Source: Actinomycetota bacterium
GTDB lineage: Bacteria; Actinomycetota; Geothermincolia; Fen-727; Anoxymicrobiaceae
Direction of reading: 5' to 3'
NCBI GenBank assembly: GCA_043807425.1
Contig: JAZDFZ010000079.1
Location: forward strand, 4,301 to 68,300
Length of the DNA stretch: 64,000 nt
Shown: positions 26,072-63,468 of the stretch, one piece after another
Numbering within the stretch: position 1 is the first letter of the stretch
Layout: each line of letters begins with the position of its first letter
The notes under the pieces: generated by a model
What the model was told of the DNA's origin: nothing
Seen by the model: only the letters and a program-made list of their open reading frames with translations
The model's database searches: none
Made by a program: the position numbers and the translations under genes

Positions 26072-26198
26072 GTAGCCGGGCGTACAGACGCATGATATCA
26101 GAGGTCGGCGCGGTGGAGGTATGATGTCGCCTCCGTGGCGGCCCGTCCGTACCGTTGGATATACTTGCCTGTGTCGCGTTCGAGATTGGAGGGAAGGC

Positions 26199-27164
26199 AT
26201 GGGCTCACCGTGGGTGGAGCACGAGCAGATGGTCGTGACCGTGCGCTCGCTGTGCGAGACGGTGCGGGACGTGGTACGTCCGCACCTGGGCAGAGCGTCG
26301 GCGAAGGGACACGAGGGCTCCGGAGCCTCGGGCGACATGACCTTCAGCATCGACGAGGTGGCGGAGCGGGCCGTCGAGGGCGTCCTGGGCCAGCTGGACA
26401 ACGTGGCGTACTACTCGGAGGATCGGGGCCTGGTGCTGCCCGCAAACCCGGAGTACCTCCTCATCATCGACCCGATAGACGGCACCCGGCCCGCGGCGGC
26501 GGGGCTCGAGTCGTGCTGCGTCAGCGTGGCGGCGGCCCGGTACGACGGGGGTTCCACCGATGGGTTGACACTCGCCGACGTCTTCCTGGGCGTGGTCGGG
26601 GAGATAAAGAATGATGCCTTCTTCAGCGCTATCGCGGGTGGGGGCGCGCGGCTGGAGACGGGCGGTCGCCTGGTGCAACCGTCGCTGTCGGAGGGCACGG
26701 AGCTGTCGAGGATCTTCTGGACGGCCGGGTACCGGGGGCGGCCCGCCGAACCGCTGACCGCGGTCATGAGCGAGCTGATCGACCTCACCTCGGTCGACGG
26801 AGGCTACTTCGACCTGGGGAGCGCCGCGTTCAACATCACCCGGGTGGTGACCGGCCAGATGGACGCCTACGTGGACGTGGGACAGAGGATGGTGGAGGAG
26901 TCCGAGGGGATGAGGGACCTTTTCCTCCAGGTGGGGCACGGGGCGATATTGAACAACTTCGCCTACGACATAGCCGCCGCGGCCCTGGTGGCGAGCGAGG
27001 CCGGTGCCGCCGTCAGCGACGCCGGGGGGGAGCCCCTGGACCGCTACCCCCTGGTCCCGCGCGAGGGAGGTGGCCAGGTCTCCACGCTGGTCGCGTCGAA
27101 CGAGTCGCTCCACGGGCAGATCCTGGAGTACCTGGACCGTGGGATGGAGAGGCTGGGAGCGTAG
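26199..27164 (+). CDS. Inositol monophosphatase family protein
   Basis: Metal-binding motifs YYSEDRG and LLIIDPIDGTRPAAAG. The ATG at 26199 is preceded by GGAGGGAAGG; the tracked ORF begins at 26121. Confidence 0.85.
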   Translation: MGSPWVEHEQMVVTVRSLCETVRDVVRPHLGRASAKGHEGSGASGDMTFSIDEVAERAVEGVLGQLDNVAYYSEDRGLVLPANPEYLLIIDPIDGTRPAAAGLESCCVSVAAARYDGGSTDGLTLADVFLGVVGEIKNDAFFSAIAGGGARLETGGRLVQPSLSEGTELSRIFWTAGYRGRPAEPLTAVMSELIDLTSVDGGYFDLGSAAFNITRVVTGQMDAYVDVGQRMVEESEGMRDLFLQVGHGAILNNFAYDIAAAALVASEAGAAVSDAGGEPLDRYPLVPREGGGQVSTLVASNESLHGQILEYLDRGMERLGA

Positions 27165-44982: not shown

Positions 44983-46250
44983 CGCGTTACAAGGCTCCCA
45001 GGGGCACCTCCGACCTCGTCTTCCCCGACTCGGAGAAGATGGAGAAGCTCATCGAGGCCGCGTGCGCGCTGATGAGGGAGCGTGGCTACCGGCGGATCGA
45101 TACCCCCATACTCGAGGACACAGAGCTCTTCACGCGCAGCATCGGCGAGGACAGCGACATAGTCACAAAGGAGATGTACACCTTCGAGGACCGGGGCGGC
45201 GAGTCTTTGACCATGCGTCCGGAGGGGACGGCGCCGGTGGTCCGTGCCTACCTGGAGCGAGGGCTGGCATCCCGCGGTCTGCCGGTTAAGGTCTACTACG
45301 TGGGACCGATGTTCCGCAGGGAGAGGCCGCAGGCCGGGCGGTTCAGGCAGTTCACGCAGATAGGCGGGGAGGCGATAGGCAGCGAGGACCCGTTCCTCGA
45401 CGCCGAGATCATCTCGTTCAACCATGTCCTCTTCGCCCGCCTGGGCCTCACCCGATACCGCCTGCTGGTCAACAGCGTGGGATGTCGCGAGTGCCGGCCG
45501 GCCTACGTGGACCGCCTGCGTTCCTTCCTCGAGGCGATGAAGGACGGCCTCTGCGAGCAGTGCGTCAGGCGCACGGAAACGAACCCCCTGCGGGTCTTCG
45601 ACTGCAAGAACGAGAGGTGCCGCGCCACGCTGGAGGGCGCGCCGACGATAGGAGAGCACCTCTGCCCCCGCTGCAGGGAGCACTTCGACGCCGTGCTGGC
45701 CCACCTCGACGGACTGGAGGTGAGGTTCGAGGTGGACGAGCGGATGGTGCGCGGCCTCGACTACTACACCAACACCGCGTTCGAGTTCCAGTTCGAGGGG
45801 CTGGGGGCGCAGAACACCGTGTGCGGCGGGGGACGCTACGACGGCCTTGCCGAGGAGCTGGGCGGGCCCCCGACCCCGGGGGTCGGCTACAGCATGGGCC
45901 TGGAGCGCCTGCTGATGGCCCTGGACGCCGAGGGGCTGGACCCGTTCGAGCCCGAGCGACTGGCCGTGTTCCTGGCGGCCGCCCCGGGTGTGGAGCGCGA
46001 GCCGGTGCTTCGGCTCCTCGAGAGCCTGAGGGCGGAAGGGATCAGCGCGGACACCGACTTCCTGGGCCGCGGCCTCAAGGCCCAGATGAAGCAGGCGGAC
46101 CGGCTCGGCGCGCGCGTAGTGGTGATGATCGGGGAAGAGGAGCTGGCCTCCGGCGAGGTCACCGTGCGGGACCTCGACGCCTCCGAGCAACTGAGGGTGT
46201 CCGCCGAGGGGCTCGTCGAGCGGATACGGGGAATGCTGGCCGGAGGCTGA
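44979..46250 (+). CDS. hisS: Histidyl-tRNA synthetase
   Basis: [13 protein letters not shown], motif 2 ([16 protein letters not shown]), GGGRYDGL and a C-terminal anticodon-binding domain. ATGA overlap with the MBL gene. Confidence 0.96.
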
Positions 46251-46256
46251 GAAACC

Positions 46257-46283
46257 GTGCAAAAGGGTCTGACCCTTTTGCAC
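46257..46283. other. Perfect 13/13 palindrome between hisS and aspS
   Basis: GTGCAAAAGGGTC-T-GACCCTTTTGCAC, 7 nt after the hisS stop, with no U-tract. Shares the GTGCAAAAGGG motif with 48142-48165. Confidence 0.6.
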
Positions 46284-46309
46284 ATAGGGGAGTAGAAAGC
46301 CGGGTGGAG

Positions 46310-48100
46310 ATGGACACGGAGGGGACCCGAAGCGAGCTGGAGGTATCGTTCGCCCTCAAGCGGACCGACTGGTGCGGCGAGATCCGGGCCGGGGACATCG
46401 GCCGCGAGGTCGTCGTGGACGGCTGGGTCGCCAGGAGGCGCGACCATGGTGGCCTGATCTTCATCGACCTGCGGGATACCACCGGGGTGATCCAGGTCGT
46501 CTGCGACCCCAGGGAGAGCAGCGGGTCGCACGCGACGGCGGAGGGGGTCCGGCCCGAGTACGTCCTGGGCGTGAGGGGCAGGGTCCGCGAGCGCCCCGAG
46601 GGCACCGAGAACCCCGATATGCCCACCGGCCGGGTCGAGGTCGTAGTCGAGGAGATCGAGGTGATGAACGCCTCGGAGACGCCGCCGTTCGAGATACGCG
46701 ACGGGATAAACGTGGACGAGAAGGTGCGCCTGCAGTACCGGTTCTGCGACCTGAGGCGCGAGGAGATGATGGCCGGCTTCAAGCTGCGGCACCGGATCGT
46801 CAACGCGACCCACCGTTACCTCGATTCACAGAGGTTCACGGAGGTGGAGACCCCGCAGCTGTGCAAGAGCACGCCGGAGGGCGCGCGCGATTACCTCGTA
46901 CCCTCGCGCGTGCAGCCGGGCAGGTTCTACGCGCTGCCGCAGTCCCCGCAGCTGTTCAAGCAGGTCCTCATGGTCTCGGGTTTCGACCGCTACTACCAGA
47001 TAGCCCGCTGCTTCCGTGACGAGGACCTGCGGGCGGACCGGCAGCCCGAGTTCACCCAGGTCGACCTGGAGATGTCGTTCGTCGATGAGGACGACGTCAT
47101 CGCGGTCATCGACGGGATGCTCTCCGCGGTATTCGAGGCGACGGGGCGCACGCTGGCAACCCCCGTCGAGCGCATGCCGTATGACCGGGCCATGGAGCTG
47201 TACGGCACAGACAGGCCGGACCTTCGCTACGGGCTGCGCATGGGCACGCTCGACGGCGTCTTCGCGGGCACGGAGTTCAAGGTGTTCGCCGAGACGCTGG
47301 CCTCCGGCGGCTGCATCCGGGGCATGCGCGTGGAGGGTGGCTCGTCGATGTCGCGCTCAGCGCTGGACGGCTGGAACAAGGCCGCCCAGCAGGAGGGCGC
47401 GGCCGGGATGATTTGGATGGTGCGCGAGGAAGACGGACTCCGCTCTCCGGTGGCCAAGTACCTGACCGGGCCCGAGCAGGAGGGGCTGGCCCGTAACCTG
47501 GAGCTGGAGACGGGGGACGCGGCGTTCGTGCTGGCGGGCAAGCGCTGGGACTGCGACGAGATACTCTACACGCTGCGCCCCAGGGTAGCCGGATCTCTGG
47601 GCATGGGCTCGGCCGACGAGTTCCGCCTGGTCTGGATAGTGGATTGGCCGCTGCTCGAGTACGACCGGGTCGAGCAGCGCTACAAGGCGCTGCACCATCC
47701 GTTCACCAGTCCCACTGAGGACTCGCTGCCCGGCCTGGAGGACGACCCGCTCTCGGCCAGGGCCCGCGCCTACGACATAGTGATGAACGGCGTCGAGATC
47801 GGGGGCGGTTCGATCCGTATCCACCGCCGGGACGTGCAGGAGCGCATGTTCTCCCTGCTGGGCATCGAGCCCGGGGAGTTCCGCACCCGGTTCGGCTTCC
47901 TGCTGGAGGCGCTGCAGTACGGGGCGCCACCCCACGGAGGCGTCGCGCTCGGGCTGGACCGCCTGGTGATGCTGCTCGCCGGACGGGAGACCATCCGCGA
48001 CGTCATCGCCTTCCCCAAGACGCAGTCGGCCTCCGACCTCATGACCGGCGCGCCCGACGAGGTCTCGCCGGCACAGCTCCGCGAGCTGGGTTTGAAATGA
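46310..48100 (+). CDS. aspS: Aspartyl-tRNA synthetase (bacterial type)
   Basis: OB-fold N-domain ([19 protein letters not shown]), motif 1 and the [16 protein letters not shown] motif 2. Also has the GAD insertion and motif 3 (GGVALGLDR). The tracked ORF from 45482 overlaps hisS out of frame. Confidence 0.96.
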
Positions 48101-51533: not shown

Positions 51534-51962
51534 ATGAAAAAGTCGAGGATCATCGGGCTGGACGTGGGTGAGCGGAGGATCGGGGTGGCACTGAGCGACC
51601 CGCTTGGCCACACCGCCCAGCCGCACCTCACCATCGAGAACGACGATCGCGCCATGCGCCGCATCTGCGAGCTGGCCTCGGAGTCGGGCGTCGGGCGCGT
51701 GGTTGTGGGTCTCCCGCTACTCCTCGACGGCCGCGAGGGCGCGCAGGCCGCCAAAGCGCGGGAGTTCGCCTCACGCCTCGGCGAGCACCTGTCCCTGCCC
51801 GTCGAGATGATCGACGAGCGGCTCACCACCCGCCAGGCCACCTCTATCATCTCCAGGAGCGAGGGCGCCGGGAAGAAGGACAGGGGAGCCTCGGACCGGG
51901 TGGCGGCTGCCCTGATCCTCCAGTCGTACATGGATGGCCGCGGGGTGGACACGGATGCCTGA
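51534..51962 (+). CDS. ruvX: Putative pre-16S rRNA nuclease / Holliday junction resolvase-like YqgF
   Basis: IIGLDVGERRIGVALSD and a length of 142 aa. Its position between alaS and mltG is conserved. Confidence 0.92.
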   Translation: MKKSRIIGLDVGERRIGVALSDPLGHTAQPHLTIENDDRAMRRICELASESGVGRVVVGLPLLLDGREGAQAAKAREFASRLGEHLSLPVEMIDERLTTRQATSIISRSEGAGKKDRGASDRVAAALILQSYMDGRGVDTDA

Positions 51963-52842
51963 TACTCACCTCTACGGCAGGAGGTCGGAGCGCAGGCGCG
52001 AGAAGGCCAGGCTCAGGGTGGAGCGCCGGCGCCGGGTGCTGGCGGGGGTCGGCATCGGCCTCGCGGTCCTCGTCGTCGCGGGTCTCGTGGGCGGAATCAT
52101 CATCTTCAGGAAGGTGAAGGCGGACAAAGCCCGCAAGGTCGTAACCTACTCCGTCACCATACCCGAGGGTTTCACCAACGAGCAGACCGCCGAGCGGGTG
52201 GCCGAGGAGACCAAGGGGAGTATCAGCCGGGCCGAGTTCCTGGCCGCGCTGGAGCAGGACTACGACTACCCGTTCCTCGATGGTGCCTACCTCGAGACGG
52301 GGCCGGAGGCCCGCATGCAGGGTTTCCTGTTCCCCAAGACTTACGAGGCGACCAACAAGTCGAGCGCGCGCGCCGTGGTGAACAAGTTGCTACACCAGTA
52401 CGGGGTCGAGACGGGTGACCTGGACTGGAGCCGGGCGTCGAGCCTGGGGCTCACGCCCTACCAGGTCCTGATCGCCGCCTCTCTCATCGAGAAGGAGGCC
52501 AAGCTCGCCGACGACAGGCCGCTCGTCGCATCGGTCATCTACAACAGGCTGGCCGGGAACATGAAGCTCCAGTTCTGCTCGACCGTGGAGTACGCGCTCG
52601 GGGAATGGAAGGAGACGCTCACGGAAGAGGATCTGGAGGTGGACTCACCCTACAATACCTACCAGGTGAGCGGGCTTCCCCCCACCCCGATATGCAACCC
52701 GGGATTCGAGTCGATCCGGGCGGCTCTGTACCCGGCCGCCACCGACTACTTATACTTCATACTGACGGGGCCGGATGGAAAGCACAGCTTCACCGGCGAT
52801 TACCAGCAGTTCCTCCTCTGGAAGAAGCAGCAGGGCGGATAG
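51955..52842 (+). CDS. mltG: Endolytic murein transglycosylase MltG (YceG-like)
   Basis: N-terminal TM anchor and the catalytic region LIAASLIEKEA...VIYNRL...YNTYQVSGLPPTPICNPG. The ATG at 51955 overlaps the ruvX stop; the tracked ORF begins at 51934. Confidence 0.92.
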   Translation: MPDTHLYGRRSERRREKARLRVERRRRVLAGVGIGLAVLVVAGLVGGIIIFRKVKADKARKVVTYSVTIPEGFTNEQTAERVAEETKGSISRAEFLAALEQDYDYPFLDGAYLETGPEARMQGFLFPKTYEATNKSSARAVVNKLLHQYGVETGDLDWSRASSLGLTPYQVLIAASLIEKEAKLADDRPLVASVIYNRLAGNMKLQFCSTVEYALGEWKETLTEEDLEVDSPYNTYQVSGLPPTPICNPGFESIRAALYPAATDYLYFILTGPDGKHSFTGDYQQFLLWKKQQGG

Positions 52843-52854
52843 CGGGAGAGCGGC

Positions 52855-53340
52855 TTGGCCGAGGATAACCTGGGGTACAGGTCACAGCTGATGACCTTGA
52901 TGAGGATAGCCCTCATCCTGGACACGGCGGGAGAGGGCGTGCTGGGCAAGGGCGCACCGGCCATGATGTACCAGGCCGGCCGCGACGCCGGGTGCTCCCA
53001 GGGATGCGCCCCCGGTGAAACGGGCGATATGGAGCAGGCGCTCTCCATGGTCCTGACCGAGGGGGACGAGGTCTGGGAGTTCGAGCGCTGGAGCGATCCC
53101 AGGCAGGACTCCCGCTGGATGGACGGCGGCGACCGCACATCCACCTGGATACTCTTCAGGCGCTGCCCGCTGCTGACCCTCTCGAGGAAGGCGGGCAGCA
53201 TTCCGGGAGGCCTCCTGTGCCAGGCCCTCCACGGCTACATGGCGGGCTCCATGGAGCGGGTGATGGGACGGCGCGTCGACATGAAGGTGGAGCACTGCGG
53301 GCCGAGGGCCTGCAAGGTGCTGGTGGAGCTGAGGACCTGA
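52855..53340 (+). CDS. V4R (4-vinyl reductase-like) domain protein
   Basis: 161-aa ORF with a C-terminal V4R-type pattern: RRCPLL...GGLLCQALHGYMAGSMERVMGRRVDMKVEHCGPRACKVLVEL. The TTG start lies 12 nt after the mltG stop. Its TGA overlaps the ATG of the next gene. Confidence 0.7.
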   Translation: MAEDNLGYRSQLMTLMRIALILDTAGEGVLGKGAPAMMYQAGRDAGCSQGCAPGETGDMEQALSMVLTEGDEVWEFERWSDPRQDSRWMDGGDRTSTWILFRRCPLLTLSRKAGSIPGGLLCQALHGYMAGSMERVMGRRVDMKVEHCGPRACKVLVELRT

Positions 53341-54188
53341 TGTACGTAGCAACGGCCGCGCTGTGCGCGTGCGGGGGGTGCCACTGCTCGCTGATGACGG
53401 TCGGCGAGCCGTTCATCGCCCTACTGGCGGACAACTCCATATCTTACTCGAGCCACTTAGTCGACCGCAGGACCATCGCACCGTCCGACGTGGTCCTGGT
53501 GACGGGCGGCATAAGGAACTCCGAGGAGCTGGAGATCGCCTCGGAGATAGGGCGGACCAGCCGCAAGGTGATAGCGGTGGGTTCCTGCGCGGTCTACGGG
53601 GGCATCCCCGGCGCGGGCGATATCCTCCCGGTCGAGGTCGAGGACGGCTCAGGACTGCCGGTGCTGCTGCCGCGGCTCGAGCCGCTGGACACGGCGATCA
53701 CGGTGGAGCTGTACGTCCCGGGGTGCCCGCCGCCACCCAACCTCATTTTCGAGGCCCTGAAGTCGGTGGTCGAGGGTTACTCGTCCATACGCTTCGACTC
53801 GACGGTCTGCTCGGACTGCCCCCGCCGGGTGCGGCGGGGCCCGGTGCGGCGCTGGACGCTTCACCCCGGGACCGGCGTCCACGGCGCCGACTGCCTTCTC
53901 TCGGGGGGCATGCTGTGCCTCGGCCCGGTGACCCGTGGAGGCTGCCGGGCTTCGTGCCCCGCCAGGGGAGCCGTCTGTGCGGGGTGCCGGGGACCTTCAG
54001 ACGCGGTCCTCTCCTCCCAGTTGCACTCCATGTACGCGGACATGGTCAAGTACGTGGGGTTGACCTGCGGTACGAGGGAGGACAAGGTCGCCAGAGAGAT
54101 GGCGGCCCTGCTGCGCTGGATGTACCTGTTTACCCGGAGGGACCCGGTGACCAGGGCCAGGATCAGGGAGAAGGTCGTCGATGGATAG
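53340..54188 (+). CDS. [NiFe]-hydrogenase small subunit, cytoplasmic group-3 (FrhG/MvhG-like) type
   Basis: No Tat signal. Proximal-cluster cysteines are LCACGGCHCS, VGSCAVYGG and PGCPPPP. The C-terminal 8-Cys region (CSDC...C..GGMLCLGPVTRGGC...CP..G..CAGCRGP) is typical of COG1941. The tracked ORF from 53217 overlaps the V4R gene out of frame. Confidence 0.8.
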   Translation: MYVATAALCACGGCHCSLMTVGEPFIALLADNSISYSSHLVDRRTIAPSDVVLVTGGIRNSEELEIASEIGRTSRKVIAVGSCAVYGGIPGAGDILPVEVEDGSGLPVLLPRLEPLDTAITVELYVPGCPPPPNLIFEALKSVVEGYSSIRFDSTVCSDCPRRVRRGPVRRWTLHPGTGVHGADCLLSGGMLCLGPVTRGGCRASCPARGAVCAGCRGPSDAVLSSQLHSMYADMVKYVGLTCGTREDKVAREMAALLRWMYLFTRRDPVTRARIREKVVDG

Positions 54189-55548
54189 CCCCGAGGAACT
54201 CCAGGAAACCGGCGAGTGGACCGGCCAGAAGGTCCGTATCTACCCCGTGACCCGCATCCAGGGCAGGGCCGACATCGAGGTGTTCTTCACCCCACACCAG
54301 AAGCCACGCGGGGCCCGCTTCAGGGCTCTGGAATACCGCGGATTCGAGGAGATGGTACCCGGGATGCCCGCGTTGCGGGTGCCCTCCGTGCTGTCCCGCC
54401 TGTGCGGTCCGTGCGGACTGACCCACCAGCTGCTCTCCTGCCTCGTGATCGAGCGCGCGCTGGACGTGGAGGTCCCGGAGGCGGCCACATCCTTCCGCGA
54501 GCTGATCTCCTGGTTGTTCCTTGCCCAGAGCCACCTGCTGACCATGGTCTACTCGGTCTTGCCGGATTACGCGCTTCCCATGTCCGATGTGTCGGTGCGT
54601 AACATAGCCGGCATATACTCCGTTGACCGGGAGGGCGTGTCCAGGCTGCTCGCGGCCCTGACGGCGTTCACGCGGGCCATCAGCGCGGTGGCCGGCCTGC
54701 CGGCGCATCCGCCGGTGGTGGTGCCCGGGGGGACTTCCTACCTGCCGGCCGCGGAGGGCTTGCACAGGGTATCCGAGATGCTCGCCGAGGGCAGGGAAGA
54801 CATCGCCGAGACCCTCCGCCTGGTGGAGATGCTGACGAAGCGCAGCTCCAGGATGATCGACCCGGGTCCACCACTGAAGGGCTTCTACGTCACTACCAGC
54901 GCCGGCGGCTTCGCCGACATCAACGGAGACTCCGTGACCATCTCCCCGTTCGATGGCGAAGAGCGACGGGTGGTAGACCCCGACTCCTTCCTCGATATGC
55001 TGGACAAGAGGCCCGTCGACTGGTCCTACCTGGTGCCGGTGGCGATTCTGCAGGGTGAGCCGTGCCTGGTGGGGCCCATGGCGCGGGTCAACCTGGGTTT
55101 CAGCCCGGAGGCGGGATGGGCGTGCGAGGAGCGCGCACGGATCCTGGAGGAGTGGGGCGCGCCCATGGACAGCGAGCTGCTCTTCTTCACGGCGCTGGCC
55201 CTGGAGGTCATCTGGGCCTGGGAGAACGCGTCGCGGCTCCTCGAGGGGGGGACCATCTCCGGGACCGACTCGTGCTCGGTGCCCTCGATGTCGGAGTCGG
55301 GCGCGGTGGCGGTGCTGGAGACGCCCCGGGGCACGGCCCTCCACTGGCTGGCGATGGACAGGGGAGGGGCGGTCGCGGAGTACCGAGTGGTAAGCTCGCT
55401 GCAGCTCAACCAGGCGCTGCTCGACGACCACCTCACCTCGGTGGCGCTCAGCGAGGTCAGCGGCCTGGAGATAAGTGACGCCACTTCCCAGCGGCTGCAG
55501 TTCGCGGTGCGCTCATTCCTGCCGTGTGTCTCCTGTGGGACACACTAG
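54181..55548 (+). CDS. [NiFe]-hydrogenase large subunit-like protein (variant proton-gate residue, no C-terminal extension)
   Basis: L1 motif RLCGPCGLTH (C75, C78), ETPRGTALHW, and L2 motif PCVSCGTH (C449, C452), which ends exactly at the stop codon. The N-terminal motif reads PVTRIQGR where RIEGH is canonical. Overlaps the small-subunit gene by 8 nt. Confidence 0.8.
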   Translation: MDSPEELQETGEWTGQKVRIYPVTRIQGRADIEVFFTPHQKPRGARFRALEYRGFEEMVPGMPALRVPSVLSRLCGPCGLTHQLLSCLVIERALDVEVPEAATSFRELISWLFLAQSHLLTMVYSVLPDYALPMSDVSVRNIAGIYSVDREGVSRLLAALTAFTRAISAVAGLPAHPPVVVPGGTSYLPAAEGLHRVSEMLAEGREDIAETLRLVEMLTKRSSRMIDPGPPLKGFYVTTSAGGFADINGDSVTISPFDGEERRVVDPDSFLDMLDKRPVDWSYLVPVAILQGEPCLVGPMARVNLGFSPEAGWACEERARILEEWGAPMDSELLFFTALALEVIWAWENASRLLEGGTISGTDSCSVPSMSESGAVAVLETPRGTALHWLAMDRGGAVAEYRVVSSLQLNQALLDDHLTSVALSEVSGLEISDATSQRLQFAVRSFLPCVSCGTH

Positions 55549-55560
55549 GAGGACAGGCGG

Positions 55561-55836
55561 ATGCCACACATACCGGACATAAAGGTGATAAAGGAGCGCT
55601 GCGTAGCCTGCGGTGACTGCATCACGCTATGCCCCCAGAGTGGAGAGGACTCTACCTCTCCCGTGCTGGACATGGGAGAGGGGACGGTCTCCGTGCTGAA
55701 CCATGAGGCGTGCATAGCCTGTTACACCTGCGTGGAGTACTGCCGCGCTGCGGCCATCCACATCGTCCAGGAAGTCTCCGGGCACGAGGGGCAGCCTGAC
55801 CTGTACCTGACCCGCCCCGTGAACAGGATAGTCTGA
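55561..55836 (+). CDS. 2x[4Fe-4S] ferredoxin-domain protein
   Basis: 91-aa ORF with CVACGDCITLCP and CIACYTCVEYC motifs. Starts 12 nt after the large-subunit stop. Confidence 0.8.
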   Translation: MPHIPDIKVIKERCVACGDCITLCPQSGEDSTSPVLDMGEGTVSVLNHEACIACYTCVEYCRAAAIHIVQEVSGHEGQPDLYLTRPVNRIV

Positions 55837-55898
55837 TAACGGACGAGTTGGAGATTCCTCATATATTTTTCCGCCGTTTCCGATACTATGTTAAACAA

Positions 55899-56070
55899 GG
55901 GTAAGCCTACGAGCTGTGACTGTAGGTCGAACAAGTTGCCCCGCAGCGTGGTGCGAGCCAACTTGACGTCTAGCAGACTTGGCCGGGTAAGCCTACGAGC
56001 TGTGACTGTAGGTCGAACAAGTTGCCCCGCAGCGTGGTGCGAGCCAACTTGACGTCTAATAGACCTGGCC
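55899..56070 (+). repeat. Tandem duplication of an 86-bp unit (83/86 identical) with hairpin potential
   Basis: Unit 1 is 55899-55984 and unit 2 is 55985-56070, followed by a degenerate start of a third unit (GGGCAAGGG). Lies in the 265-nt spacer between the ferredoxin gene and the first Roadblock gene. Confidence 0.9.
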
Positions 56071-56125
56071 GGGCAAGGGCCCGATCGCGGGGGGGATTCG
56101 ATTGAACGGTTCGCGAGAAGACAGG

Positions 56126-56473
56126 ATGTCGGAGATTCTGCGGGACTTGCGGGCGGACAGTCCCGGCGTCGAGGCCGCCGTACTGGTGAGCTCCGACGCC
56201 ATGCCGCTCGCCTCGGAGCTCGGCGATTCAATGGACGAGGAGCTCCTGAGCGCGATGGCTTCGTCGCTGGTGGCCTCTGGGGAGAGGGTTGCCCGCGACC
56301 TGTCGCGGGGAAGCCTCGACCAGGTCTACCTTCGGGGCGCCGAAGGCGACCTGGTGGTGGTGAGGGTAAACGACGACGCCTTGCTGGCGTGCGTGGTCAA
56401 CAACCAGGCCAGGATGGGAATGACCCTGCTCGAGGTCAATCGCTGTGCCGCGAGGCTATCGGAGATCATTTAG
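56126..56473 (+). CDS. Roadblock/LC7 (MglB/CvnB-like) domain protein 1
   Basis: MSEILRDLRADSPGVEAAVLVSSDAMPLAS...LVVVRVNDDALLACVV fits the Robl_LC7 alpha-beta-alpha pattern. The open frame starts at TTG 56102; ATG 56126 was chosen. Confidence 0.75.
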   Translation: MSEILRDLRADSPGVEAAVLVSSDAMPLASELGDSMDEELLSAMASSLVASGERVARDLSRGSLDQVYLRGAEGDLVVVRVNDDALLACVVNNQARMGMTLLEVNRCAARLSEII

Positions 56474-56642
56474 ACGGCCTCCGGACGCGAGAGGTAGCAG
56501 GAGCGCTGTGATAGAATTAGCGTGTAAAACGGTATACGTGAGTGCCGCTGGCGATGCCTATGCGAGGGTATGACATGGGGATTGTTCGTCGGTGTTCGCG
56601 TATCCGAGCGGTCCCGATCGACGAGGCCGGGAGGTAGCCGGC

Positions 56643-57041
56643 TTGGACGGTTCTCAGCAGAGCGACCTCCACGAGGCGCTGAAGCGCCTCATAGAGAAGT
56701 CCCAGGACATAGACGCCGCGGCGGTTGTGAGTATGGACGGCTTTGTCATGGCCTCGGTCCTGCCCGCCGGGTACGAGGAGGACCGCCTGGGCGCGATGTC
56801 GGCCGCCCTCCTCAGCCTGGGCGAGCGCACGGCGCAGGAGCTGGGCAGGGGAGAGCTCGCGCAGGTCTTCGTGGAAGGGACCAACGGTTACGTCTTCCTT
56901 CTGGCCGCCGGAGAGGACGCCGTACTCAACGCCATCGTGCGGCGTGGAAGCAAGCTCGGGCTGGTCCTCTATGACATTCGCAACGCGGCCAAGGAGATCG
57001 CCGCGATAATCGACGCGAACCTGCAGGTCGAGTACGAGTAG
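56643..57041 (+). CDS. Roadblock/LC7 (MglB/CvnB-like) domain protein 2
   Basis: LHEALKRLIEKSQDIDAAAVVSMDGFVMAS...GYVFLLAAGEDAVLNAIV. TTG 56643 has GGGAGG 8 nt upstream. The tracked ORF starts at GTG 56592. Confidence 0.75.
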   Translation: MDGSQQSDLHEALKRLIEKSQDIDAAAVVSMDGFVMASVLPAGYEEDRLGAMSAALLSLGERTAQELGRGELAQVFVEGTNGYVFLLAAGEDAVLNAIVRRGSKLGLVLYDIRNAAKEIAAIIDANLQVEYE

Positions 57042-57056
57042 TCAGGCAGGAACGGA

Positions 57057-60000
57057 ATGCCACTGAAGGGAAGCCTCAGAGATTTCAGCCTTCCCGACCT
57101 GTTTCAGCTGATTCACTTCGGGAAGAAGAACGGGACCCTCAACATCACCAATGGTGACGTGAAGGGCTACGTGTGCTTCCGTAACGGCAACGTCTTCTTC
57201 GCCACCCATAACTGGAAGCGCCCGCCTCTCGGCCAGCGCCTCGTCGAAGCGGGAATGGTCACCAGCGACCAGATCGAGGAGGCCCTGGACCTGCAGAAGG
57301 GCTCCAGCAAGGGTCAGCGCCTGGGTAACATCCTGGTCGAACTCGGCTACCTGTCCAGGGAATCCCTGGAGGTGTTCGTAGAGGAGCAGATCCGAGATGC
57401 GGTATTCCACCTGCTTCGCTGGACCGAGGGCGACTTCGACTTCGATCCCAACCAGATCTTTCCCGAGGAGGATATCGGCCTCTCCATGAGCACGGAGGAC
57501 CTCATCATGGAGGGGAGCCGGCGCCTGGACGAGTGGTTCCAGATCGAGAAGAAGGTTCCTTCGCTCGACTCCGTATTCCGCATGACGAAGATGCCGGGAA
57601 AGGAAGCCAGTGACATCAACCTGACCAGCGAGGAGTGGCTGGTCCTCTATCACGTCGACAGTGAGAGCACGGTCAGGGACATCATCGAGAAGTCAGGGCA
57701 GAGTGCGCTGGTGACATGCAAGGCGCTGTACGGGCTGGTGACGGCGGGGCTGGTGGAGCTGGTCACCGGAGAAGGGGCGGGGGTCCCGGCTGCGAGCGGT
57801 GCCCTGGAGGACGAGATAGAGAAGCTGGCGGAGTCCGGTGAGCCCGCCCCGGCCGCGCCCCAGGCCGCCTCCCAGGAGACCCGCGGCAGGAAGGCGCGCC
57901 GCAAGGCTCCCGCGCCCATCGAGGAGGAAGCCCCCCCCGCGGAGGTCTTTGAGACCGTCGGTGACTTCTCGGACGAGGACGTCAGCGTAGAGGTCGTCGG
58001 CGCCGGCGAGGAGGATGCCCGGAAGCGGCGCCGCAAGCCGAAACGGCGCGGTAAGAAGGCCGAGCCGGAGCCCGTGGCCGAGGAAACCGAGCCCGTGGCG
58101 GAGGAAGCCGAGCCGCCGGCGGAGACGGAGGAGGAGGCGCGCGAGCCTGCTCCCGTGGTCGAGGCCGGCGAGGAGCCCCCGGCGGAGGAGTCCCCGGCCG
58201 CCGTCGAGGAGGTCCCGGCCGAACCCGAGCCCGAGCCCCCGGAGGCCGCGCCCGAGGAGAAGCCTTCGGCTATCGTCCACGACGACGAGGTTATGCCGCT
58301 GCCCGAGGCAAAGGAGGAGGCACCGGCCCCGGGGCAGAGCCTGGTCGATTACTACAAGTCACTGGCCCTCAAGGATGCCACCGACACGGACCGGCTGGTC
58401 GCTTTCCAGGAGACCGAGGAGAGCATCGTCGCGCAGCAGGGGGCGGTCGACCAGGATCTCGAGCCGGGGTTCGTCTCGACGGTGGAGGAGGAGGTCCCGG
58501 ATTTCGAGGAGCCGGAGGATATCCCGCTGGAGTGGGCCGGCCACCTGGCGCGCATGAGGGGCGGGAAGAAGCTGGAGACCCCGAAGATTCTACAGCCCGC
58601 CGAGGAGGCTGAGCCCGCTGAGACCCCACCGGAGGCGGTCTCCGAGGCCGAGCCGCTCGCCGGGGGGGTCCCGGTCGAGCGGGAGAAGCTGGAGGAGCCT
58701 GTGGTGGCGGAGGAGACCCACCCGGGCGCCATGACCTACGAGCAGGAGCTGGAAGCCGCCGCCGCGGAGGAAGAGCCCCCGGCGGTGCCGCTCGTCGAGG
58801 AGGTCGGCGTGGCCTCGGGAGCCCCGTTGCCCTCCGGCGAGGACATGGAACGGATGCTCCAGGTGGAGCCGCAGCCAAGGGAGGAGATGAGCAGGGAGGA
58901 GCTACTCGCTTTCGACCAGCCCACATACCAGGCCCAGGCGAGGGAGACCGCGCCGGAGGTGGAACCGCTCCTCGAGGGCCCCGAGCCGGCGGTCGAACCG
59001 GTCGGCGCGGCGGAGGGACCCCGCGGCGGCATCCTCGGCCGGGTCCTGAAGTTCACGAAGGGCGCTCCGGCCGAGGACATCGAGGTGGTCCTCGAGCAGG
59101 GCGAGCCGATCGAGGCCTCGGTCGTCTCCGAGGAGCTGTCGGTGGCCGAGGACCTGGGCATAGAGGTCGGCGAGCCTGTTGCGGTGCAGGTGGAGACAGG
59201 CCCGGCCTTCGAGGTGGAGCTCGCCTCCGGCGAGGTGGCCGAGGAGCCCGTGATGGAACCGGTCATCGAGACCGCGGAGCTGATCACCGAGGCCGAGACC
59301 GCGGCAGCGATCGAGCTCGCGGAGCTCGAGAGCGCTGTGGAGGAGGTCGAGGCCGTAGAGAGCGTCATCGAGCCGGGTACGGTCGAGGTCGCGGCGGAAC
59401 CGGAGGAGGTGTTCGTCCTCGAGGAGCCTGAGACCGTGGCGATGATTGACGAGGAGGAGGTCGTTGCGCTCGAGCTCGAGATAGAAGCCACCGCGGTGGA
59501 GGGAGCGCAGGTGATAGCGCTCGACTCGGTCAGGTCGGCGGGCGCCGGTCAGGTGGAGGAGGCGTCGGTTCTCGACGAGATAGTGTTCGAGGAGCCGTCG
59601 GCCGCCGTGGAGGAATTGGCCGAGGCGTGGGAGGTCCCCGAGCTGGAGGAGGGAGCCGCGGTGACCCTCTCCGAGTCGCCCGAGGTCGCCGCCGTGGAGG
59701 CCCCTGCCTTCGAGGATGAGCTGGCGGAGCTCGAGCTCGCCGCGACGGGTGAGGAGGAGCCGCCCGCCGCGATAGCCGAGGAGGAGCCACCGGCGGCGGC
59801 GTTGGCTGTCGAAGCCACCGACGACGCATACGGTGGATTCGAGGACATCGAGATGCTTCGAGAGATCACGTCGTCGAAAACGGCTACGGCACCCCCTCCC
59901 GAAGAGGAGCCCGTCCCGCCCGAGGAGGAGCTTGCCCGGGAGGCCCGGCCGGAGTTCGAGCAAGAGCCTGTCGTGGCGTTCGACGTCGAGGAGGAGGAGG

Positions 60001-60272
60001 AGGAGGGCGGTCTGATGGGCTCGCTGAAGGTCAGCGGCAAGAGGGGCGCCGGGACGAGCCTCATCGACCTGGAGACCTTCGAGCTGGAGCAGGAACTGCT
60101 CGAACTGGCCGGCGGCGTTAAGCAGACTAAGCATCGCCTGCCCGTTACCGAGCGGGACAGCGGGGCCAAGAACAAGAAAGACAAGAAGGGACGCGGCGGC
60201 AAGGGCCGCGGGTCAAAAGAGGTGGACAAAGGGTCGGTTAAGAAGATTATTGACGACATGAAGAAGATGTAG
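57057..60272 (+). CDS. DUF4388 (PATAN-like) domain protein with giant acidic low-complexity region
   Basis: The N-terminus [49 protein letters not shown] is the DUF4388 signature. About 800 aa of Glu/Ala/Pro/Val-rich sequence follows, with basic patches and a Lys-rich C-terminus. Confidence 0.8.
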
Positions 60273-60287
60273 GAGGGGAGGGATTGA

Positions 60288-60830
60288 TTGGCGGAAGTCT
60301 ATAAGATCGTGGTGACAGGGCCGTTCGACTCGGGAAAGACGACGTTCATAGGCTCCATCAGCGAGATCGACGTCGTCTCTACCGAGAGGACGACGAGGGT
60401 CGGCGGAAAGCGGCACAGCACCACGGTTGCGATGGACTTCGGCCGGATAACCCTCCGCGAGGGCCGCGTGCTCTTCCTCTACGGAACCCCCGGCCAGGGC
60501 CGGTTCGACTTCATGTGGGAGATCCTCTCGGAGGGCATGCTCGGGTACGTCCTCCTGCTGGACGGCAGCCGACCCGACACCTTTGAAGAAGGCTTGCGCA
60601 TCCTTGACGCGTTCGAGCGCATCTCCGAGGCGCCCCACGTGGTAGCGCTGACCCGGCCTGAGGTGCCGGGCTCGCTTCGCGCTTCGGGTGCGGCCCGTCG
60701 CGTGCCCGCGCTGGAGGGGCACACGGTACTTGAGTGCGATGCGCGCAGGCTGAAGGACGTGAAGGACGTGCTGCTCGAGCTGCTGGAGGCGGTGCTGGCC
60801 AGGGCTGAGGCCCGGGCGCAGGCGGGCTAG
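60288..60830 (+). CDS. Small Ras-like GTPase of the COG2229/CvnD/MglA-related family
   Basis: P-loop KIVVTGPFDSGKTT, switch-I-like STTVAMDFG and G3 LYGTPGQGRF (Thr in place of the canonical Asp, as in MglA). No NKxD motif is present. TTG start after AGGAGGGGAGGGA. Confidence 0.75.
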   Translation: MAEVYKIVVTGPFDSGKTTFIGSISEIDVVSTERTTRVGGKRHSTTVAMDFGRITLREGRVLFLYGTPGQGRFDFMWEILSEGMLGYVLLLDGSRPDTFEEGLRILDAFERISEAPHVVALTRPEVPGSLRASGAARRVPALEGHTVLECDARRLKDVKDVLLELLEAVLARAEARAQAG

Positions 60831-60856: not shown

Positions 60857-61720
60857 ATGCACATCGATGGTAGCACGCGGCTGGTGGGGTTGATCGGCAA
60901 CCCGGTAGAGCACAGCCTCTCGCCGACCATCCACAACGCGGCGTTCGATTATCTCGGGATCAACTGGTGCTACGTGCCGCTACCCGTCGAGGAAGGCCGC
61001 CTCCTCGAGGCCGTCGAAGGCGTCAAAGCACTGCGCTTCTCCGGCGTGAACGTGACCATGCCCTTCAAGACCGAGGTGCTGGGGCTGCTGGACGAGGTCG
61101 CGATGTTCGCCGAGTCCGTAGGCGCGGTGAACACCATCCTGGTCGACAAGGGGAGGCTCATCGGCTACAACACCGACGGGCGCGGCTTCTACACCGCCCT
61201 GATCCGTGACCTGGACTACCAGGTCAAGGACAAACGGGTGCTGGTGCTCGGCGCCGGAGGCGCGTCGCGGAGCGTCACCGTCTCGCTGGCGCTGGCCGGC
61301 TGTACTTCGATCATGATAGTCAACAGGTCGCCCGAGCGCAGCAGACAGCTCGCCGATATAATCCTGAAGAGCGTGCCCGAGGTCGAGGTCAACTGGTTGT
61401 CGCCGGACGACAACTACGACATCGTGGTCGCGGAGTCGGACATCATCATAAACGCGACGCCACTCACGACCTTCAACGGCGCACTGCGGGTGCCGGTTTC
61501 GCTGCTCAACAAGAACCAGCTGGTCTGCGACCTGAACTACTCGCTGTACCAGCCGCCACTCCTGCAGGAAGCGGAGGCGCGGGGGGCAAGGGTCATGGAC
61601 GGCAAGGGCATGCTGCTCTACCAGGCCGCCGCCGCCTTCGAGATCTGGACAGGCCTGGACGCGCCGGTCGAGGTCATGCGCGTGGCACTGCTGAAGGCCC
61701 TGGAGCAGGCCCACATCTAG
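60857..61720 (+). CDS. aroE: Shikimate dehydrogenase
   Basis: LVGLIGNPVEHSLSPTIHNAAF, NVTMPFK, NTDG and the LGAGGASRSV NADP site. Confidence 0.94.
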   Translation: MHIDGSTRLVGLIGNPVEHSLSPTIHNAAFDYLGINWCYVPLPVEEGRLLEAVEGVKALRFSGVNVTMPFKTEVLGLLDEVAMFAESVGAVNTILVDKGRLIGYNTDGRGFYTALIRDLDYQVKDKRVLVLGAGGASRSVTVSLALAGCTSIMIVNRSPERSRQLADIILKSVPEVEVNWLSPDDNYDIVVAESDIIINATPLTTFNGALRVPVSLLNKNQLVCDLNYSLYQPPLLQEAEARGARVMDGKGMLLYQAAAAFEIWTGLDAPVEVMRVALLKALEQAHI

Positions 61721-61782
61721 TTGGACTTGGAGCATAGTTAGATCGATGTGTCCCGTGGATGGGACCACACGAGGGACGAGGG

Positions 61783-63468
61783 ATGGAACGACCGAGACAG
61801 GACCGCCTGGGAAGGCTCCTTCTGCAGAGTAACCTCATATCCGAGGAACAGCTTACAGAGGCGCTGGACGAGCACGGCTCGTCGGGCAAGTCCCTCGGCC
61901 GCGTACTGATCGACAAGGGGATGATAACCGAGGGCCAGCTGACATCCGTTCTCGCCGAGCAGATCGGCATCCGCTACACGGACCTCTCGACCCACCCCAT
62001 CGACCCGGGCGCGGCGACTCTCATCGACGCCAACCTTGCCAAGCGCTACACGGTGGTCCCAATCGACTTCGAGGACAACAAGCTGGTCGTAGCCATGGCG
62101 GACCCCACCAACGTATTCGCCCTGGACGACCTGCGCATCATGACCGGCATGGAGATCCTCCCGGTGGTGAGCACCAAGGACGACATCAACGCAACCATCG
62201 GCAGGTACCTGCACAGCACCGCCGACATGGAGGGCGCCCTCGACGACCTCCCGATGCTGGAGGAGCTCGAGGAGACGGAGGACGAGCTGGTGGAGGCGGC
62301 TGAAGAGGCCCCCATCGTCAAGTACGTCAACCTGATCATCAACGAGGCTGTCGGAGAGAACGCCAGCAACGTGCACATCGAGCCCGCCGAGAAGGACGTG
62401 CGGATCCGCTACCGGGTCGATGGCGTCCTCCACGAGATAAGGCGCTCTCCCAAGCGAATACACCCGGGCATCGTCTCCAGGGTCAAGATCCTGGCGAACC
62501 TGAACATCGCCGAGAGGCGCGTACCGCAGGACGGCCGCTTCGCCATGGACGCCAACGGCCGGTTGGTCGACATCCGCGTCGCGACGGTCCCCACGATCCA
62601 CGGCGAGAAGATCGTGCTGCGCATCCTGGACCGCATGCAGATCCTGATATCCCTTACCGACCTCGGCATGCTCGAGGGGCCGCTCAAGCTATTCAGCAAT
62701 TCGTTCAAGAAACCGTACGGCACGGTCGTTGTCACGGGACCCACCGGCTCGGGCAAGACCACCACCATGTATGCCGCACTGAGCGAGCTCAACAAGCGCG
62801 AGGTGAACGTTATCACTGTCGAGGACCCGGTGGAGTACCAGGTCAAGGGGCTCAACCAGGTCCACGTCAACACCAAGGTGGGCCTGACCTTCGCGGCGAC
62901 GTTGAGATCCATCCTTCGCTGCGACCCCGACATCGTGATGATCGGCGAGATCCGTGACGCCGAGAGCGCCAAGATGGCCATCGAGTCGGCGCTCACCGGC
63001 CACATGGTCCTCTGCACCCTCCACACAAACGACGCGCCGAGCGCTATAACGCGTATGGTCGAGATGGGGGTCGAGCCGTTCCTCATCGCCTCCGCGGTGG
63101 ACAGCGTGGTCAGCCAACGGCTGGCCCGAAGGCTCTGCACCCGATGCAGGAATGTGGCGGAGTACGACACGGAGTACCTGGAGAAGATCGGGTGCTCCAT
63201 CGAGGAAGGTGAGGAGGTCACGTTCTACAAGGCGGATCCCAAGGGTTGCGCTTTCTGCAACAACACGGGGTTCCGGGGGCGGATCGGCATATACGAGGTC
63301 TTCACCATGGACGAGGAGATAGAGCGCATGCTGGTCAAGCTCGCCACCTCCCGCGAACTGGGGGTGGCCGCCGAGCAGAGGGGGATGGTCCGTCTGAGGC
63401 AGGACGGCTTCACAAAGGTGAAGCAGGGCATCACCTCTATCGAAGAGATCCTGCGTGTTGTAATGTAG
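61783..63468 (+). CDS. pilB: Type IV pilus assembly ATPase PilB (GspE family)
   Basis: N-terminal MshEN/T2SSE_N domain (LGRLLLQSNLISEEQLTEAL), Walker A GPTGSGKTT, Asp box, Walker B IVMIGEIRD, His box and the tetracysteine CxxC...CxxC. The tracked ORF starts at 61759. Confidence 0.92.
   Translation: MERPRQDRLGRLLLQSNLISEEQLTEALDEHGSSGKSLGRVLIDKGMITEGQLTSVLAEQIGIRYTDLSTHPIDPGAATLIDANLAKRYTVVPIDFEDNKLVVAMADPTNVFALDDLRIMTGMEILPVVSTKDDINATIGRYLHSTADMEGALDDLPMLEELEETEDELVEAAEEAPIVKYVNLIINEAVGENASNVHIEPAEKDVRIRYRVDGVLHEIRRSPKRIHPGIVSRVKILANLNIAERRVPQDGRFAMDANGRLVDIRVATVPTIHGEKIVLRILDRMQILISLTDLGMLEGPLKLFSNSFKKPYGTVVVTGPTGSGKTTTMYAALSELNKREVNVITVEDPVEYQVKGLNQVHVNTKVGLTFAATLRSILRCDPDIVMIGEIRDAESAKMAIESALTGHMVLCTLHTNDAPSAITRMVEMGVEPFLIASAVDSVVSQRLARRLCTRCRNVAEYDTEYLEKIGCSIEEGEEVTFYKADPKGCAFCNNTGFRGRIGIYEVFTMDEEIERMLVKLATSRELGVAAEQRGMVRLRQDGFTKVKQGITSIEEILRVVM

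Follow-up and report, generated by a model that had tools for sequence, protein, structure and literature searches.

A hydrogenase-like gene quartet as a candidate input to a Roadblock-PATAN-GTPase switch beside type IV pilus motor genes in Candidatus Geothermincolia

Introduction

What do hydrogenase-like genes do beside a small-GTPase module and the motor genes of the type IV pilus? This question is raised by a 64-kb stretch of DNA from an Actinomycetota bacterium (hereafter the window, by which the whole stretch is meant), in which the block under study, at window positions 52855-60830, lies between mltG and aroE and is followed by pilB and pilT. The first half of the block is a quartet of genes for a protein of probable V4R fold, a [NiFe]-type small subunit (HydS), a [NiFe]-like large subunit (HydL) and a ferredoxin (Fd); the second half encodes two Roadblock (Robl) proteins, a PATAN-domain protein and a small GTPase of the Ras superfamily. 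Known H2 sensors signal to histidine kinases, or are suspected to signal to cyclic di-GMP (c-di-GMP) enzymes, and the inputs of bacterial small GTPase switches are mostly unknown. The comparison of this locus with its relatives leads us to propose, with evenly balanced confidence, that a GTPase/PATAN switch acting on the pilus motor takes its input from a hydrogenase-derived sensor of H2 or redox state. No description of a coupling between a hydrogenase and a small GTPase was found in full-text literature searches.

Two nested modules beside the pilus motor genes

A locus survey, in which 185,579 species genomes were scanned with the PATAN N-terminal domain and the loci annotated by tblastn, was complemented by homologue look-ups. 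The survey was extended by an exhaustive search with profiles, by two further look-ups of gene context and by a scan of metagenomes, which brought the large-subunit family to 44 distinct loci (individual loci are cited by L numbers); neighbors were counted among these on contigs extending far enough. The metagenome scan was queried with the clade alignment (A1), and a broad large-subunit alignment (A5) was dropped as too divergent.

The full gene order, which recurs throughout Candidatus (Ca.) Geothermincolia, is alaS-ruvX-mltG-[V4R-HydS-HydL-Fd]-[Robl x2-3-PATAN-GTPase]-aroE-pilB-pilT. The quartet is present or absent as a whole and was found only in this class; the Roadblock-Roadblock-PATAN-GTPase module adjoins pilB/pilT in several Actinomycetota classes, with or without the quartet. 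The preliminary description had read the block as a single 8-kb insertion into a core operon. This model is ruled out because L012 and L035 carry the GTPase half without the hydrogenase half at the same site, and the block is instead two nested modules. The order mltG-Robl(-Robl)-PATAN(-GTPase)-aroE-pilB, with no hydrogenase-like genes, is found in L012, L035 and L032.

The linkage of the two modules is strict wherever the quartet occurs. V4R and HydS genes precede the large-subunit gene in 37 of 37 loci, Roadblock genes follow it in all 36 that could be counted, and PATAN and GTPase genes follow it in 18 of 18. This linkage spans Ca. Anoxymicrobiaceae to Ca. Geothermincolaceae, whose large subunits are just 28% identical, and two outlying family members (P0251 and P0262) share the same quartet-GTPase-module context. 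The large subunit is the fastest-evolving gene product of the block (28% identity versus 56-71% for its neighbors), and the open reading frames (ORFs) are full-length in all 44 loci. The preliminary description had made its idea of a coupling depend on the two halves being found together elsewhere; in the gene-neighborhood survey they were syntenic, and a V4R gene recurs beside PATAN-GTPase genes in Chloroflexota.

The GTPase module takes three arrangements by pilB/pilT. It stands before aroE in the window, L012 and L035, after aroE in L013 (mltG-aroE-Robl-PATAN-GTPase-pilB-pilT), and between two pilB-like genes, downstream of aroE, in L039 (Ca. Geothermocultor quzhuomuensis, class Ca. Aquicultoria). 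The module therefore tracks the pilus motor genes, not mltG or aroE. In relatives, pilC, pilM and pilO lie downstream of pilB/pilT. The motor ATPases PilB and PilT are presumed to be the output of the switch, and it is quite probable that the GTPase module regulates pili.

Since L012, L035, L013 and L039 hold the GTPase half alone, the quartet is an optional add-on. In a rough neighbor-joining tree of PATAN, GTPase, PilB and AroE, the quartet-less L035 and L012 lie nearer to the window's clade than to the Solincola-type clade. Crude as it is, the tree suggests that the quartet was either gained once and lost at least twice or gained on two occasions.

The features of the window that bear on these modules are as follows.

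51934-52842, + strand: mltG/YceG
52855-53340, + strand: ORF1, V4R-fold protein by fold evidence, 161 amino acids (aa), first gene of the quartet
53340-54188, + strand: [NiFe]-type small subunit (HydS), 282 aa, Oxidored_q6 7.5e-25
54181-55548, + strand: [NiFe]-like large subunit (HydL), 455 aa, PF00374 5e-16, NCBIfam VhuA-like 7e-42
55561-55836, + strand: 2x[4Fe-4S] ferredoxin, 91 aa, Fer4 families, last gene of the quartet
55899-56077, no strand: 86-bp tandem repeat, 2.1 copies, TRF score 330, 95% identity
56102-56473, + strand: Roadblock/LC7 protein 1, 123 aa, Robl_LC7 2.8e-18
56592-57041, + strand: Roadblock/LC7 protein 2, longest ORF 149 aa, Robl_LC7 9.5e-17
57057-60272, + strand: DUF4388/PATAN protein, 1071 aa, PF14332 1.4e-37
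60288-60830, + strand: small Ras-superfamily GTPase, 180 aa, ATP_bind_1 6e-15, Ras weak
60857-61720, + strand: aroE
61759-63468, + strand: pilB (MshEN + T2SSE)
63470 to the window end at 64000, + strand: pilT, of which only the start lies within the window

The layout given in the preliminary description, with eight genes on one strand between the mltG stop (52842) and the aroE start (60857) and with pilB and pilT after aroE, was confirmed in its coordinates; the genes are tightly packed, and the flanking gaps of 12 nt on the mltG side and 26 nt on the aroE side are exact. ORF1 and HydS genes overlap by 1 nt (TGATG), and HydS and HydL genes by 8 nt; the true start of HydS is the ATG at 53340, the listed ORF from 53217 being an upstream over-extension. 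A consensus pattern scan found no terminator-like site on the + strand inside the block, and the G+C content shows no clear break at the block edges. Both modules probably lie in one operon.

The 86-bp tandem repeat noted in the preliminary description is real (period 86) and lies in the sole sizeable gap of the block, the 265 nt that separate the ferredoxin gene from that of Roadblock 1, where an internal promoter would be expected. The related metagenome-assembled genome (MAG) L014, which is 92% identical to the window in DNA, has one copy (about 8929-9019), more distant relatives have none, and no further copy occurs in the window. An RNA or regulatory element was considered and rejected, as there was no Rfam match, no excess folding energy (z-score -0.09) and no conservation. 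With a single copy in L014, the repeat is taken to be a recent local duplication, and it is probably not functional in itself.

The closest relative of the window is contig JAHJCO010000023.1, from an 'Actinomycetota bacterium' MAG, with a DNA identity of about 92%. Named relatives are Ca. Anoxymicrobium/Anoxymicrobiaceae and Ca. Geothermincola/Solincola, all of class Ca. Geothermincolia in the NCBI taxonomy. According to the description of one Ca. Solincola MAG, which also refers to other members, this organism uses the Wood-Ljungdahl pathway and has hydrogenases, Hdr, Rnf and type IV pili (PMC12917137). The remaining genes of the window are mostly housekeeping genes (rnhB, dprA, a xerC-type recombinase gene, rpsB, frr, dxr, ispG, proS, tgt, yajC, relA, aspS and alaS), and neither hyp maturation genes nor a second hydrogenase were found in the 64 kb.

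Elsewhere in the window, three long ORFs with high third-position G+C, at 1064-2980 (+), 21745-23013 (-) and 24650-26401 (-), encode 638, 422 and 583 aa and match no Pfam family at E<=1e-5. The aspS ORF as listed (45482-48100, 872 aa) starts about 280 codons too far upstream and overlaps the hisS frame; its tRNA-synthetase domains begin near residue 310, and its relatives have 595-597 aa.

The Roadblock-PATAN-GTPase module

Selection was gauged by the ratio of nonsynonymous to synonymous substitution rates (dN/dS), computed between the window and its 92%-identical relative. Roadblock 1 has a dN/dS of 0.018. Roadblock 2 is the most conserved product of the block, with 71% identity to the Ca. 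Solincola-type copy and relatives of 132-142 aa; an alternative frame at 56570-56974 holds no domain. Its matches in the PDB include the generic Robl_LC7 structure 7f8m (9e-20), CvnB5 (3leq, 3e-13) and, more weakly, MglB (0.014). Loci of the Solincola/Geothermincola type (L007, L008, L019-L030, L094 and L095) have three Roadblock paralogues versus two; this set goes together with a large subunit in which an L1-motif Cys is replaced by Asp and the Arg of the PRG motif by Glu, two changes that co-occur in 10 of 13 species.

The PATAN protein comprises an N-terminal PATAN domain, a weak winged helix-turn-helix match, about 800 aa of acidic low complexity and a basic tail. PF14332 covers aa 4-160 and is interrupted by an alpha-helical insertion at aa 55-113 (window 57219-57395). 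The insertion is a pair of c-di-GMP-binding motifs of the MshEN type (NF053729, 8e-16, 57.5 bits against a cut-off of 38), and in the PDB it matches PilF (6f8l, 1.8e-10) and MshE (5htl, 4.8e-8). As PilB has an MshEN domain of its own, the scaffold and PilB may both read c-di-GMP. The dN/dS is 0.03 for the N-terminal domain and 0.24 for the remainder of the protein, and a Response_reg receiver domain was not matched in it.

Window positions 57807-60272 encode an acidic stretch rich in Glu, Ala, Pro and Val with short tandem repeats, followed by a basic tail rich in Lys and Gly. The protein varies greatly in length: relatives in Geothermincolia have 990-1437 aa, that of L013 has 403 aa and those of Chloroflexota have about 280 aa. 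In L008 (6467-9987), the gene is split into ORFs of 221 and 893 aa by a frameshift or an assembly error.

For the GTPase, a single-sequence search of the PDB returned nothing, and a family profile was needed. With this profile, MglA of Thermus thermophilus (3t12) was the best match (5e-11), followed by Rab/Arf proteins. The P-loop GPFDSGKT and the G3 motif TPGQ are invariant, and Roadblock genes lie upstream, which places the protein in the MglA family. The intrinsic catalytic Arg of Myxococcus xanthus MglA is Arg53 in switch I; in the profile alignment to 3t12, which is of limited reliability in this loop, the column aligned to the catalytic Arg holds an invariant Thr. At the G4 (NKxD) site, the window has TRPE and all Geothermincolia relatives have TRxD/ATRI.., and the nucleotide specificity of the GTPase may differ. 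This site reads NRPD in another actinobacterial group and canonical NKQD in Chloroflexota.

Genes for an MglA-family GTPase and an MglB homologue near PATAN genes are a described neighborhood (PMC4316618), and PATAN domains of Synechocystis, which are the output of PatA-type regulators, bind PilB1 and PilC (10.1101/2021.06.11.447907). The Roadblock-PATAN-GTPase half thus belongs to an already known kind; the GTPase survey that describes it mentions neither hydrogenase nor V4R (PMC4316618). The switch, which the preliminary description called conservon-like, fits this neighborhood better than a conservon, although the Roadblock proteins are closest to CvnB. Its statement that the histidine-kinase-like CvnA and CvnC/DUF742 are absent was borne out, as neither occurs in the block or in any relative examined.

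The hydrogenase-like pair and the ferredoxin

The large subunit matches PF00374 (5e-16) and aligns over its full length with 7t2r_D (1.6e-41, residues 17-455), as a group 3 large subunit does. The nearest solved structures are HydABCSL (7t2r), the alpha subunit of F420-reducing hydrogenase (9sfi), MvhA (5odc) and HoxH (5xf9), at 1e-41 to 1e-37. The NCBIfam match to a VhuA-like family (7e-42) is far below the equivalog cut-off, and the VhuG-like match of the small subunit (1e-40) is likewise below its cut-off. The preliminary description had allowed for a hydrogenase inside a well-characterized catalytic clade. Judged from its sequence, the large subunit is instead a divergent group-3-like clade of its own, outside the characterized catalytic clades. 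A 29%-identical HoxH-type hydrogenase in an unrelated gene context (P0038) was rejected as a member of the family.

The window protein has the four metal-ligand Cys (C75, C78, C449 and C452) of the RxCGxCxxxH and DPCxxCxxH sites, His82 and the PRG Arg. Gln takes the place of the proton-gate Glu of RxEGH (RIQGR) and Leu that of the Asp of DPCxxC, and the protein ends at His455 with no C-terminal extension of the kind that a maturation protease removes; in the alignments to 7t2r and 9sfi, these two structures show the Glu-Gly-His motif. The window's clade (37 sequences) behaves in the same way. All of its members share the four metal-ligand Cys and the L1 His, 32 retain the PRG Arg, and the gate position is never Glu (Gln in 25, Met in 6, Thr in 2, Gly in 2, Arg in 1 and Asp in 1). 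Arg stands in place of the His that follows the gate, the DPCxxC Asp is replaced throughout, and every protein stops at the final His. The gate Glu is also absent in 22 of 22 species loci.

Other lineages have changed further. In the Solincola/Geothermincola clade, the gate position is Tyr, Ser, Phe, Asn, His, Thr or Ala, the PRG Arg is Glu in 13 of 13 and the second L1 Cys is Asp in 10 of 13 loci. The outlier P0262 has lost the C-terminal CxxC in an unchanged gene context. The comparison set was made up of the 141 cluster representatives that come nearest outside the family, in a search of 1.84 billion proteins; the Glu occurs in 124 of them, the Arg in 130, the Asp in 128 and a C-terminal extension in 112. 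The missing extension by itself does not disqualify group 3 catalysis. As for the gate, a Glu-to-Gln change kills the activity of the Desulfovibrio fructosovorans enzyme (PMC3325256), and Glu-to-Ala or Glu-to-Gln strongly reduces that of the group 3d soluble hydrogenase (SH) (PMC11023054).

The iron-sulfur (Fe-S) ligands present the opposite picture, being kept even in lineages with damaged Ni sites. In the small subunit, twelve Cys, which would suffice for three [4Fe-4S] clusters, are invariant in 22 of 22 species and in L094 and L095; in the ferredoxin, 23-24 of 24 sequences keep the eight Cys. The dN/dS is 0.04 for V4R, 0.07 for HydS, 0.10 for HydL and 0.11 for Fd, comparable to 0.09 for pilB; with values of about 0.1, the quartet is not decaying. 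These results suggest that the HydSL pair is selected, but not for standard H2 turnover, and that its constant element is the Fe-S wire. In the window's own clade, an Ni-Fe site may still be present. It is quite likely that the pair is not a conventional hydrogenase.

The V4R-fold protein

The label 'V4R' given to ORF1 in the preliminary description is supported by fold and by a COG-type label of JGI, and it is not supported by family models. ORF1 has no Pfam or NCBIfam match, and the V4R model PF02830 does not match it even at E<=10; among its homologues, PF02830 matches just 3 of 33, at E>=0.016. The 65 homologues all belong to one lineage and carry the JGI label 'predicted hydrocarbon binding protein'. 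An AlphaFold2 model of ORF1 has a pLDDT (predicted local distance difference test) of 88.6. Its best Foldseek matches are the XylR_N/V4R sensor domains of PoxR, MopR and DmpR (3e-5 to 1e-3), with weaker matches to the V4R protein MJ_1460 (8e-3) and to the TRAPP subunits Bet3 and TPC6. ORF1 is thus predicted, from a confident model, to have a V4R/Bet3-type fold. Its Cys104, Cys122, His126, His147 and Cys153 are invariant in 22 + 2 species, which suggests a metal or cluster site.

A canonical V4R gene (PF02830) lies at most 1.5 kb downstream of PATAN-GTPase genes in 32 of 49 Chloroflexota loci, with no hydrogenase there. Of the hints that do not depend on synteny, this recurrence in another phylum is the strongest for V4R as an adaptor to the GTPase module.

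The recurrent module of Chloroflexota (L009-L011 and L036-L093) consists of PATAN (about 280 aa), GTPase, Roadblock or alpha/beta-hydrolase, V4R and hexapeptide nucleotidyl-transferase genes, and no description of the PATAN-GTPase-V4R module was met in the literature examined. In L009-L011, the loci with called genes listed, a GGDEF response regulator and multi-GAF proteins come next. A Chloroflexota-type PATAN-GTPase pair also occurs in L073, on a contig that was binned as 'Methanosarcinales archaeon' and is probably mis-binned.

Proposed mechanism and alternatives

In the mechanism that we propose, the output would be a switch in which the two Roadblock proteins, the PATAN scaffold with its c-di-GMP-binding MshEN insertion and the MglA/CvnD-type GTPase act on PilB, PilT and PilC, and the switch would reach the pilus motor probably via the PATAN domain. 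The quartet, no longer an ordinary H2-turnover enzyme, would be an accessory input through which the GTPase switch is informed of H2 binding, of the redox state of the ferredoxin pool, or of both. As the likely adaptor, V4R would relay the signal to the Roadblock/GTPase pair, and the state of the GTPase and c-di-GMP would then work through PATAN on PilB and PilC. By such a device, acetogen-like anaerobes could tune piliation or twitching to the supply of electron donor. Three elements of this scheme are inferred: that the quartet and the GTPase module touch each other, what kind of signal is passed on, and how the pili respond.

We advance a more explicit version tentatively, giving it somewhat less than even confidence. 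A hydrogenase would have become the sensory input of a Ras-like switch, with V4R, HydSL and Fd setting the nucleotide state or localization of the GTPase through the Roadblock proteins, and the PATAN/c-di-GMP scaffold would direct PilB/PilT in an H2- or redox-guided twitching ('energy taxis'). If this were true, the locus would encode a prokaryotic assembly of V4R (Bet3-fold), Roadblock and GTPase proteins that includes a metallo-sensor, and a hydrogenase would signal through neither a histidine kinase nor a cyclic-nucleotide enzyme.

The idea in the preliminary description that the hydrogenase is the sensor of the switch can be kept in part. A sensor role is favored because the Ni ligands erode with the Fe-S Cys invariant, because the genes are under purifying selection and because V4R is linked to PATAN-GTPase genes in Chloroflexota. 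The quartet is, however, an optional add-on and not an obligatory sensor, as the four quartet-less loci L012, L035, L013 and L039 indicate.

Several observations weigh against the proposed coupling. First, the gene order is frozen, as mltG precedes the quartet in 32 of 32 loci and aroE separates the GTPase gene from pilB; synteny alone is therefore no proof of coupling. Second, the GTPase module occurs without the quartet in the four loci just named. Third, the 265-nt gap before Roadblock 1 could hold an internal promoter. Fourth, the window's clade keeps the four Cys, His82 and mostly the Arg, and Asp31 and Glu33 near the lost gate Glu are invariant there, so that catalysis via an alternative proton route is possible in this clade. 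Finally, no orthology of the Chloroflexota V4R with ORF1 is detectable, and the evidence from that phylum therefore holds at the level of the domain family only.

The alternative that survives best, which we nevertheless consider rather unlikely, is that the quartet is a self-contained cytoplasmic redox enzyme in a frozen operon with no signaling link, either a ferredoxin-linked hydrogenase whose protons take an unusual path or an oxidoreductase of hydrogenase origin that acts on another substrate. The invariance of the four Cys and His82 in the window's clade, with Arg in 32 of 37, would be expected of such an enzyme, as would the complete five-cluster electron wire that is retained and the strong purifying selection. 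In addition, mltG and aroE are linked equally strictly without a plausible functional tie, and the GTPase module exists without the quartet. However, the gate position is variable within the clade (Gln, Met, Thr, Gly, Arg or Asp) and not merely changed, and sister lineages lose Ni ligands in different ways and keep the genes and their context, which is hard to fit to one conserved catalytic chemistry. Nor would a self-contained enzyme account for a quartet that is never apart from the Roadblock genes (36 of 36 loci) or for the recurrence of V4R with PATAN-GTPase genes in Chloroflexota.

A distinctly unlikely alternative is that signaling is real and the signal is not H2. The switch would then respond to the redox state of the ferredoxin pool or to oxygen via the Fe-S chain, or to a small hydrophobic ligand via V4R, and the large subunit would be a structural partner of the small subunit only. 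In keeping with this, invariance is seen in the Fe-S ligands and in the Cys/His set of V4R, the Ni ligands are gone in many lineages, and the closest V4R-fold structures (PoxR, MopR and DmpR) are ligand-binding sensor domains. Against it stand the four Cys in 37 of 37 and the Arg in 32 of 37 sequences of the window's clade, which suggest a metal site still under selection, and the purifying selection on the large subunit itself (dN/dS 0.10). That the hydrogenase-like genes are decaying, functionless relics is very improbable, for although the active-site environment varies between lineages and the large subunit evolves fastest (28% versus 56-71% identity for its neighbors), the ORFs are full-length in all 44 loci, the dN/dS is 0.04-0.11 and all 20 Fe-S Cys are invariant across families.

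If the proposed link between the quartet and the GTPase switch is real, a metallo-enzyme would for the first time be the source of an input to a Ras-like switch in bacteria, and non-flagellated anaerobes would have a way to move toward their electron donor. The family would then offer a stepwise series from [NiFe] hydrogenase to non-catalytic Fe-S protein, in which the proton gate was lost first and the Ni ligands afterward. Even without the link, the large-subunit clade is a distinct, previously unclassified group-3-like lineage, and its automatic annotation as 'hydrogenase' or 'F420-non-reducing hydrogenase' inflates the H2 metabolism inferred for these MAGs.

Comparison with known systems

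Compared to the regulatory hydrogenases (RH) of group 2b (HoxBC-HoxJ of Cupriavidus necator and HupUV-HupT), the HydSL pair shares the architecture of a large/small heterodimer with three Fe-S clusters. HoxC, the RH large subunit, has no C-terminal extension, and neither has the large subunit described here. In RH, an altered second coordination sphere accompanies low turnover, and the L1-motif His is replaced by Gln (PMC5665086). The differences are threefold. First, RH loses the L1 His, whereas here His82 is invariant and the gate Glu is lost; RH was accordingly dropped as a parallel for the Glu-to-Gln change, its own change being His to Gln. Second, RH has a histidine kinase as its partner, and none occurs in the block or its relatives. 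Third, the protein described here is closest to group 3 (Mvh, HoxH and HydABCSL), not to group 2.

The sensory [FeFe] hydrogenases (HydS, groups C/D) likewise combine a hydrogenase scaffold with an altered proton-transfer chain or active site and are read as sensors (PMC11023054). They belong to an unrelated enzyme family, and their output is through PAS or other signaling domains, not a small GTPase. In Ehr complexes and in NuoD/NuoB of complex I, the large subunit loses its Ni ligands, the small subunit keeps its Fe-S clusters, and the pair is kept for a new role. The quartet resembles these complexes in the loss of Ni ligands beside a retained Fe-S small subunit. They are membrane-bound relatives of group 4 for energy conversion, however, whereas the pair described here is soluble, group-3-like and set in a context of signaling and motility.

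On the output side, the closest likeness is with the MglA/MglB and PATAN pilus switches of Myxococcus, Thermus and cyanobacteria (PatA). The GTPase has TxxGQ and MglA as its best structural relative, Roadblock and PATAN proteins adjoin it, and the site is beside pilB/pilT. In contrast to those switches, Thr lines up with the MglA catalytic Arg, in a loop where the alignment is of limited reliability, and the G4 motif reads TRxD/E where NKxD is usual; the Roadblock paralogues number two or three and are nearer to CvnB than to MglB; and a hydrogenase-like input set is present. The PATAN protein also differs from PatA-type regulators in having no receiver domain and a very long acidic tail. With the Streptomyces conservon, the module shares a CvnB-like Roadblock protein (3leq, 3e-13), a CvnD-like GTPase (PF03029) and its occurrence in Actinomycetota, but it has PATAN and a pilus context instead of the histidine-kinase-like sensor CvnA and CvnC/DUF742.

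Finally, the eukaryotic TRAPP and Ragulator complexes bring together V4R/Bet3-fold proteins, Roadblock/longin-type proteins and a small GTPase, and Foldseek matched ORF1 to Bet3 and TPC6; the likeness to the locus lies in fold composition only. Judged by comparative evidence, what may be new in this locus is the output of a derivative of a sensory-type hydrogenase or, just as well, the input of an MglA/PATAN switch.

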